Below, piece by piece: positions 7,719 to 9,782 of a DNA stretch of 64,000 nt. The stretch comes from Escherichia coli (GTDB taxonomy: Bacteria; Pseudomonadota; Gammaproteobacteria; Enterobacterales; Enterobacteriaceae). The translations under genes were made by a program, and so were the position numbers. Positions within the stretch are counted from its first letter, which is position 1, and the number at the start of each line of letters is the position of its first letter. The stretch is taken from assembly GCF_050920415.1 (NCBI RefSeq), contig NZ_CP169309.1. One strand, written 5' to 3'. The notes beneath the pieces are model-generated. The model did no database searches. It was not told the origin of the DNA and saw only the letters and a list, made by a program, of their open reading frames with translations.

Positions 7719-8177
7719 TTATAGAGACAAGTCCTGCAGTCGCTCCGATAAGTCTCCAGTAGCCAACTGCTCTGCGTCGATATCTTCCTTGACCTGTTGA
7801 TGCCAGGTTGTTTCATCCCACAGCTCAAACTTGTTGAACTGTCCAACCAGCATCACTTCTTTTGTCAGACCGGCATGTTGCCGCAGTACTGGCGCGATTA
7901 ACAATCGACCGGCGCCATCCATCTGACATTCGCTGGCATGACCTAACAGAAGGCGCTGCACACGGCGCTCAACCGGGTTCATGCTCGACAGACGCGATAA
8001 TTTTTGCTCGATAATTTCCCATTCAGGCAGGGGGTAAAGCAGCAGGCACGGGTGATGAATGTCAATGGTGCAAACCATTTGACCGGCAGCGTTCTCAAGC
8101 AGCTGTTCCCGATAACGGGTAGGCACTGATAAGCGCCCTTTGCTGTCGAGATTGACTAACGTTGCTCCCCGGAACAT
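7719..8177 (-). CDS. mraZ: Transcriptional regulator MraZ
   Basis: 152-aa protein starting [19 protein letters not shown]; track ORF has a 12-codon upstream extension that overlaps the operator repeats. Confidence 0.92.
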
Positions 8178-8194
8178 GCCAGCCTCACCCCTTA

Positions 8195-8223
8195 TTCCCA
8201 CTTTGCCCCACAATTTCCCACTG
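8195..8223 (-). promoter_or_regulatory. Three direct GTGGG repeats at 10-bp spacing immediately upstream of mraZ (MraZ operator-like)
   Basis: Minus strand reads GTGGGaaattGTGGGgcaaaGTGGGaataa; plus-strand cccac at 8197, 8207, 8217. Confidence 0.6.
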
Positions 8224-8777
8224 AAAGGAGTTTACGGAGCGGAGGAAAAGCTTGTCAAGCCAGTCACAAGGCATACCGAGGTAAAAAACCCGATGTTTAC
8301 GGCTAATATCAGCGTTGTTTATTTTACGTCCAACGTGCGAAGCAAATTAACGTTATGAATAGCTGTAAGAAAAAATCCCTCATGGTCATCACCGTTTTAA
8401 AATGACTAACTATTTTCCACAGCAAATATAAAGTGTCAGTTTGCGACGCGAGCGGCATTTTAGGACATATCTTCCCCGGTTAACAGTCCCTGTTGCGTCT
8501 GTGTGGCGCTTGATGCCAGCAGGTTTGCGCAAAAGCAAAGAAAAGTGTTTGTTAAATCGGCAATTCATCTCTGCATGTAACAAAATAATGCAAAAACGCT
8601 CTGTCAATATTGCTTAATTATTGTGAATTTCAGCAGGTGAGTTAATTAATGGGCGGGTTTAAAAGCATTTATCAATAATAGCCAGGAATAGTCTTATTTA
8701 CTTTAAGGATATTGATGTCCATTCCCGTACTCGACGCGCCAATGAGAAATTCACTGGCGCGTATTTTTGTTCGCGGC

Positions 8778-9782
8778 TTAGTTACGGCTGAGCACGCCGC
8801 GGCGATAGAGATTACGTTTAATGCGCGTTAACCCAGGTTTTGGCTTACGCGGTTCGTCCAGGCTTGCCAGGACAATTTCCAGCACACGCTCTGCGACATC
8901 GCGGTGACGTTGAGCCACTGCCAGCACCGGGCACTGTAAGAAGTCGAGCAGTTCGTTATCGCCAAAGGTGGCAATTGCCAGGTCAGAAGGCAGTTTGCCA
9001 TCGCGACGCAGCGTGACATCCATCACCCCTTGCAACAACGCAAACGACGTTGTGAACAGCGCCTGCGGCATCGGATGCGTTTCCAGCCATTTTTCGAATA
9101 ACTGGGCAGCCGCCTCCCGCTCATAACTGTTGGCATAAAGGAAATGCACTTCGCGCGGATCATCTTTCCAGGCAGTACGGAAACCTTGCTCACGCAAGAA
9201 GCTCACAGAAAGCTCCGGCAGCGCGCCAAGATAAAGCACCGTCTCGGCGGGAAACTTACGTAACTCTTCCGCCAGCATTTCGGCATCATCCTGATCGGCA
9301 CCAACCACGCTGGTGAAGTGTTCACGATCGAGGGCGCGATCCAGCGCGACAATCGGGAACGGGTCGTTAGCCCAGCGTTGATAAAAAGGATGCTCTGGTG
9401 GCAACGACGTCGAAACAATAATGGCATCAACCTGACGCTGTAGAAGATGCTCAATACAACGCATTTCGTTGTCTGGCTGATCTTCTGAGCAAGCAATCAG
9501 CAGTTGATAACCCCGTTGCCGCGCCTGACGTTCAAGATAATTAGCGATGCGGGTATAGCTGGTGTTCTCCAGATCGGGGATCACAAGACCAATAGAACGT
9601 GTGCGTCCAGCACGAAGCCCAGCTGCCACGGCGTTCGGGTGGTAATTGTGCTCACGCACCACAGCCATGACTTTTTCAACGGTTTTGTCGCTCACACGGT
9701 ATTGCTTCGCTTTGCCGTTAATAACATAGCTTGCAGTGGTCCGCGACACTCCCGCTAGCCGAGCGATTTCATCCAGTTTCAC
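8778..9782 (-). CDS. cra: Catabolite repressor/activator Cra (FruR), LacI family
   Basis: 334-aa ORF, N-terminal [27 protein letters not shown] and LacI-type sugar-binding domain. Confidence 0.95.

Follow-up and report, generated by a model that had tools for sequence, protein, structure and literature searches.

The mraZ promoter region and its direct repeats

The stretch of DNA analyzed here (the window, 64,000 nt) carries on its minus strand the open reading frames of cra (9782-8778), mraZ (8177-7719), rsmH, ftsL and ftsI. Between cra and mraZ, a promoter scan detected Pmra as a consensus-like sigma-70 promoter, TTGACA-18-TAAACT (8258-8229), in which 10 of the 12 hexamer bases match. Pmra is the promoter from which the first genes of the E. 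coli dcw (division and cell wall) cluster are expressed, and the context found in the window is that of this promoter, with mraZ-rsmH-ftsL-ftsI downstream. Three short direct repeats, hereafter boxes 1 to 3, lie between Pmra and the mraZ ATG (8177-8175), and the -10 hexamer ends 7 nt ahead of the first of them. The coordinates of all these elements, together with their conservation, are given in Table 1.

Table 1. Features of the mraZ promoter region in window coordinates. Mean column identities were calculated from an alignment of the 300 nt upstream of mraZ comprising 80 unique Enterobacteriaceae sequences.
Feature	Position	Strand	Basis or conservation	Mean column identity
Stretch upstream of Pmra	8262..8299			0.64
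Pmra, -35 to -10	8229..8258			0.977
Pmra -35 hexamer TTGACA	8253..8258	minus	promoter scan; invariant 80/80	
Pmra -10 hexamer TAAACT	8229..8234	minus	promoter scan; invariant 80/80	
Range with putative Pmra transcription start	8215..8222	minus	38-nt leader / hexamer geometry; presumed conversion to window coordinates	
MraZ operator, three direct-repeat boxes, 10-bp period (GTGGGaaattGTGGGgcaaaGTGGG)	8197..8221	minus	sequence read	
Box 1 (DR1), GTGGG	8217..8221	minus	GTGG 80/80, fifth base G 79/80	0.997
Spacer 1				0.94
Box 2 (DR2), GTGGG, after TTT (8214-8212)	8207..8211	minus	GTGG 80/80, fifth base G 79/80	0.997
Spacer 2				0.81
Box 3 (DR3), GTGGG in E. coli, GTGG[T/C/A] elsewhere, after AAA (8204-8202)	8197..8201	minus	GTGG 80/80	0.935
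10 nt past box 3	8187..8196			0.81
Shine-Dalgarno GAGG, 5 nt before ATG	8183..8186	minus	conserved in 64-79/80 per base	
mraZ CDS, 152 aa + stop	7719..8177	minus	ORF list; Pfam PF02381; homologous to K-12 mraZ CDS	

An earlier reading of this DNA, based on the sequence only, had described three GTGGG direct repeats with a 10-bp phasing on the minus strand just upstream of mraZ, and all three are present. The array had been placed at 8195-8223, which is off by 2-3 nt, as the string quoted for it actually runs from 8221 to 8192 (minus strand, GTGGGaaattGTGGGgcaaaGTGGGaataa). Boxes 1 and 2 are separated by AAATT and boxes 2 and 3 by GCAAA. With these 5-nt spacers the period is exactly 10 bp, and three direct repeats with a GTG(G/T) core are found at this period within 8221-8197. 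From the last G of box 3 to the A of the mraZ ATG, we counted 19 nt in between, where about 18 had been given.

The usual distance after a -10 hexamer suggests a transcription start at about 8222-8220. For mraZ1p, a 5' UTR of 38 nt is given in published work (PMC5089854), and with a leader of this length +1 would fall between boxes 1 and 2, at about 8215, leaving boxes 2 and 3 in the transcript. This reported +1 lies 13 nt past TAAACT, which is more than usual, and the relation of +1 to box 1 therefore carries an uncertainty of about 6 nt. The sequence-only reading had named a transcription start downstream of the repeats as an observation that would speak against an operator; the reported leader length places the start near 8215 instead.

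Identity with the K-12 operator and conservation in Enterobacteriaceae

We compared the region with other E. coli genomes. Of 5426 complete E. coli genomes, 5423 contain a match to the 701 nt from 8100 to 8800, and in one the match is 100%. When aligned with K-12 MG1655, this stretch shows a mean column identity of 98%. From the -35 hexamer to the ATG, the window differs from K-12 only at 8241 in the promoter spacer, where K-12 has A and the window C, and C is the majority state at this position in Enterobacteriaceae (69/80). The repeats and their flanks are the same as in K-12, and the 88-nt promoter-operator stretch of the window is found unchanged in 3513 of the 5423 genomes. The gene order cra-mraZ-rsmH-ftsL-ftsI is also that of the K-12 Pmra operator locus (DR1-DR3; Eraso et al., 2014). 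Since the window derives from E. coli and its promoter-operator is that of K-12 except for one spacer base, the repeats are the reported MraZ operator itself and not merely similar to it. We consider it about 95% probable that the three repeats are the MraZ operator of Pmra (mraZ1p) at the head of the E. coli dcw cluster. Nothing that we found contradicts this explanation, and the feature as such, the MraZ operator of E. coli Pmra, is already known.

Some variation between strains was observed. Only 19 of the 5423 genomes are at least 99% identical to the window over 8100-8800, the others being 95-99% identical, and three of the matching places sit on records labelled as plasmids. In one of the 5423 genomes, E. 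coli WS3294A (NZ_CP035819.1, 3576725-3576927), a 5-nt deletion (CAGTG, equivalent to window positions 8223-8219) takes out box 1 and leaves boxes 2 and 3 in place. The deletion is either a natural mutation of the operator or an error in the assembly.

Conservation beyond the species was analyzed by a genome scan with the MraZ protein, which yielded 80 loci. They come from different Enterobacteriaceae species, and their proteins are 88-96% identical to the query. Together with the window and K-12 they form a set of 82 sequences, of which 81 serve as comparison loci to the window. In all 81, the pattern GTGG-N6-GTGG-N6-GTGG occurs exactly once, on the mraZ strand and just upstream of the gene, and both the boxes and their phasing are thus conserved in the orthologous loci. 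The bases preceding the cores are conserved as well, with TTT before box 2 in 77-80 of 80 sequences and AAA before box 3 in 80 of 80. At the fifth base of box 3, 54 of 80 sequences carry T, 13 C, 11 A and only 2 G. Because this base varies, the conserved unit is GTGG and not GTGGG or TGGGN. According to this comparison, the unit under selection is (A/T)3-GTGG at a 10-bp period, and the GTGGG in box 3, the TGGGN or GTGGG reading and the G-quadruplex pattern discussed below are all peculiarities of E. coli. The array had initially been likened to a TGGGN operator through which MraZ is reported to autoregulate the dcw cluster promoter. The operator identity is borne out by the K-12 sequence, while the TGGGN unit has to be replaced by GTGG. 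A full-text literature search combining 'TGGGN' with MraZ returned no match, and searches with GTGGG or TGGG returned unrelated papers only.

The position of the array was also compared within the 82 sequences. Box 1 follows the -10 hexamer after 7 nt in 75 of them, whereas box 3 and the ATG are separated by either 18-20 or 27-29 nt. A fixed distance to the promoter combined with a variable distance to the gene indicates that the boxes are tied to the promoter and not to the coding sequence.

One locus, on a record labelled Chryseobacterium sp. 18061 (CACSKA010000010.1), carries an Enterobacteriaceae-type mraZ with 93% protein identity to that of E. coli, and shares the same promoter and boxes. 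This assembly is probably mislabelled or contaminated.

MraZ binding and alternative readings of the repeats

Purified MraZ reportedly bound DNA with three direct repeats between Pmra and mraZ, and we know of no described regulator of Pmra other than MraZ bound to these boxes. As cited in later papers, MraZ of E. coli is a repressor of Pmra that binds to repeats situated ahead of mraZ, on the downstream side of the -10 box (Eraso et al., 2014, J Bacteriol 196:2053); the conserved repeats are named MraZ boxes in papers citing that work. Binding of MraZ and repression of Pmra are thus reported, in this cited form, for the identical operator of K-12. MraZ is curated as a transcription factor for cell division and cell wall in EcoCyc, and MraZ boxes are documented across phyla.

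The protein encoded downstream of the boxes has the residues expected for reading them. The mraZ product matches Pfam PF02381 (MraZ) with E = 4e-47 over two domains, and carries the two DXXXR DNA-binding motifs of a cognate MraZ, DSKGR (residues 11-15) and DGAGR (87-91). A 2026 cryoEM structure of M. genitalium MraZ on a four-box promoter shows one subunit per box. There, Lys13, Arg15 and Arg86 read the GTG(T/G) core from the major groove, and the oligomeric ring opens so that it can fit the boxes (PMC12957436). Protein similarity between the two species is clear but low (E = 1e-11), and the three residues are conserved in E. coli as K13, R15 and R91, the last being equivalent to R86.

On this structural precedent, the GTGG cores of the E. 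coli boxes would all be exposed in the major groove on one side of the DNA, each a helical turn from the next. One subunit of the MraZ oligomer would occupy each box and read it via its two DXXXR loops (K13, R15, R91), with neighbouring subunits binding cooperatively. The array, starting 7 nt past the -10 hexamer, would cover the transcription start and the first 20 or so nt of the leader. Since the boxes cover the start point and about 20 of the first transcribed bases, bound MraZ would block initiation or escape of RNA polymerase, and we infer steric occlusion as the mode of repression. Repression would affect mraZ itself, as negative autoregulation, as well as rsmH, ftsL, ftsI and genes beyond.

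Comparable arrays have been described in other bacteria. Among the Mollicutes, the boxes of M. genitalium and M. gallisepticum, AAAGTG[T/G] in three to four copies (PMC12957436; Fisunov, 2016, as cited), share the GTG(G/T) core, the 10-bp period and the A-rich 5' flank with those of E. coli, and the AAAGTGG of E. coli box 3 is identical to the fourth box of M. genitalium. Transcription starts in or beside box 1 in Mycoplasma and, judged from its putative start, in E. coli too. M. genitalium has four boxes and E. coli three. M. gallisepticum MraZ is described as an activator, whereas E. coli MraZ is described as a repressor; the sign of regulation is therefore not universal. In B. subtilis, three MraZ binding repeats (MBRs, GTGG[A/T]G) with 4-nt spacers lie at the mra promoter with the same 10-bp period, the mra operon is repressed, and the DXXXR arginines are required (bioRxiv 10.1101/2022.02.09.479790). 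The bases past GTGG differ between the two species, and the downstream operon is shorter in B. subtilis. The Burkholderia cenocepacia site consists of four 7-nt repeats with 3-nt spacers, compared to three boxes in E. coli; as in E. coli, its period is 10 bp and it lies downstream of the -10 box. It overlaps the transcription start, as the putative start predicts for E. coli, and the leader has 100 nt versus the reported 38 nt in E. coli (PMC7761207).

Other explanations of the repeats were weighed against the operator. The window does contain a canonical G-quadruplex motif (G3+N1-7 x4), as GGG (8219-8217), GGGG (8209-8206), GGG (8199-8197) and GGGG (8191-8188) form a G3N7G4N6G3N5G4 pattern at 8219-8188 with loops of 7, 6 and 5 nt. 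The G-rich stretch could act as a quadruplex, formed by the non-template strand of the DNA or by the RNA of the 5' leader, instead of through protein binding. A precedent exists in S. aureus, where a G-quadruplex of the PmraZ region was characterised biophysically and proposed for the mraZ promoter (PMC11796246); in both species the G-rich stretch lies just downstream of the mraZ promoter, that of E. coli being known from sequence. However, loops of this length predict a weak quadruplex, and the pattern is found in only 2 of the 82 sequences, the window and K-12. As 78 of 80 sequences have T, C or A as the last base of box 3 (GTGGT even in E. albertii, and T at this base in Citrobacter too), the motif is not conserved in related species and cannot explain the conservation. 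What is invariant, GTGG including its T, the A/T flanks and the 10-bp period, fits a motif read by a protein and not G-tracts. We rejected the quadruplex as a conserved function, given its absence from 80 of 82 sequences, and consider it very improbable as the functional element. A functionless product of the local G-rich composition has even less in its favour. The unit is short (5 nt), and we found no other support for chance. With up to one mismatch allowed, GTGGG-N5-GTGGG-N5-GTGGG is matched at a single place in the window and in none of 100 shuffles that kept the dinucleotide composition, and the relaxed form GTGG-N6-GTGG-N6-GTGG has one match where 0.02 are expected. The cores are invariant over about 80 species while neighbouring bases vary. 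Shuffles, column identities and column counts together refute a chance origin, the probability of which we regard as negligible.

The repeats might also be part of the mraZ coding sequence. As the sequence-only reading had pointed out, a longer frame runs through them: it opens at TTG 8213, ends at the same stop as mraZ and would encode 164 aa. The shorter, 152-aa form had been preferred there, rightly. RefSeq annotates the homologous ATG in K-12, the Pfam model starts at residue 1 of the 152-aa protein, and residue 4 is the first aligned position both in this protein and in M. genitalium MraZ. The conserved GAGG ahead of the ATG also argues against TTG 8213, and the reported +1 (about 8215) would leave only a 2-nt leader before that codon. 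In addition, 16 of the 82 sequences carry 10 extra nt between box 3 and the ATG, which puts the upstream frame out of register with the gene, and 16 of the 82 have no in-frame upstream start before a stop. The 164-aa frame was rejected on the RefSeq, Pfam, GAGG and frame-shift evidence; a coding role of the repeats is scarcely credible, and the 152-aa start is correct.

Other conserved segments upstream of mraZ and significance of the operator

Several further segments between cra and mraZ are conserved. One island, on the minus strand, comprises 8486-8478 and 8466-8425 and is near-invariant over about 80 Enterobacteriaceae; it reads CTGTTAAC, about 12 variable nt, then ATGTCCTAAAATGCCGCnCGCGTCGCAAACTGACACTTTATATTT. 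Within 8486-8425 we noted an inverted repeat GCAAA-N13-TTTGC and, about 280 nt ahead of the mraZ ATG, a TAAAAT that looks like a -10 element with a GC-rich discriminator behind it. The K-12 annotation is blank at this island, and an Rfam scan of 8100-8850 gave no match at E <= 1. A second near-invariant island (8372-8338, minus strand) reads TTTTTCTTACAAATATTCATAACGTTAATTTGCyTCG and contains a perfect 8-bp palindrome, TAACGTTA. The palindrome resembles an operator core of the LacI-family type, and it matched no known consensus. A third island (8591-8575, minus strand, TTGyATTATTTTGTTACA) is conserved amid freely diverging DNA downstream of cra. RNAalifold pairs the 8372-8338 island with GCAAAC in the 8466-8425 island, a pairing that shows no covariation. 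In its consensus folds of the intergenic region on both strands, the structures are all weak, join invariant segments and likewise lack covariation.

Closer to the gene, the 18-nt spacer of Pmra (8252-8235, minus strand, AGCTTTTCCTCCGCTCCG) is nearly as invariant as the hexamers and the boxes, which is unusual for a promoter spacer. It includes a CCTCC complementary to the mraZ Shine-Dalgarno region, GGGGTGAGG. For 8262-8178, the energy of the consensus fold is -14.1, compared to -6.8 +/- 1.9 for column shuffles. As the spacer lies upstream of the reported +1, a role at the RNA level would need read-through from further upstream. A T-run at 8288-8283 (minus strand, GGGTTTTTT), about 25 nt upstream of the -35 hexamer, follows a hairpin of only 3 bp; Escherichia, Citrobacter, Klebsiella and Kluyvera share it in semi-conserved form (TGGGTTTTT). 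It was not called by the terminator scan, and could be a weak end point of an upstream transcript. On the plus strand, 8421-8413 (TTTTCCACA) is a perfect match to the DnaA-box consensus TTWTNCACA; this match is not conserved in other genera and is probably due to chance.

These segments, namely the invariant spacer with its CCTCC and the three islands 120-410 nt upstream of the ATG, raise the question of whether the operator could be one layer of a larger control region that has not been described. We consider such a region possible but unlikely. The -10-like island about 280 nt before the E. coli ATG recalls the geometry of the 268-nt UpsM leader upstream of mraZ in Rhodobacter. If a larger region does exist, a transcript from upstream could read through Pmra and, with its CCUCC segment, mask the ribosome-binding site of mraZ, or else a second regulator could bind to the islands.

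As for the three repeats, the MraZ operator of Pmra adds nothing new to the biology of E. coli. Recognising it correctly settles which start codon mraZ uses and how the promoter is laid out in the window. The added value is modest and lies in the comparison of about 80 Enterobacteriaceae species, which shows selection on the GTGG cores, their A/T flanks, the 10-bp period and the fixed distance to the -10 hexamer.
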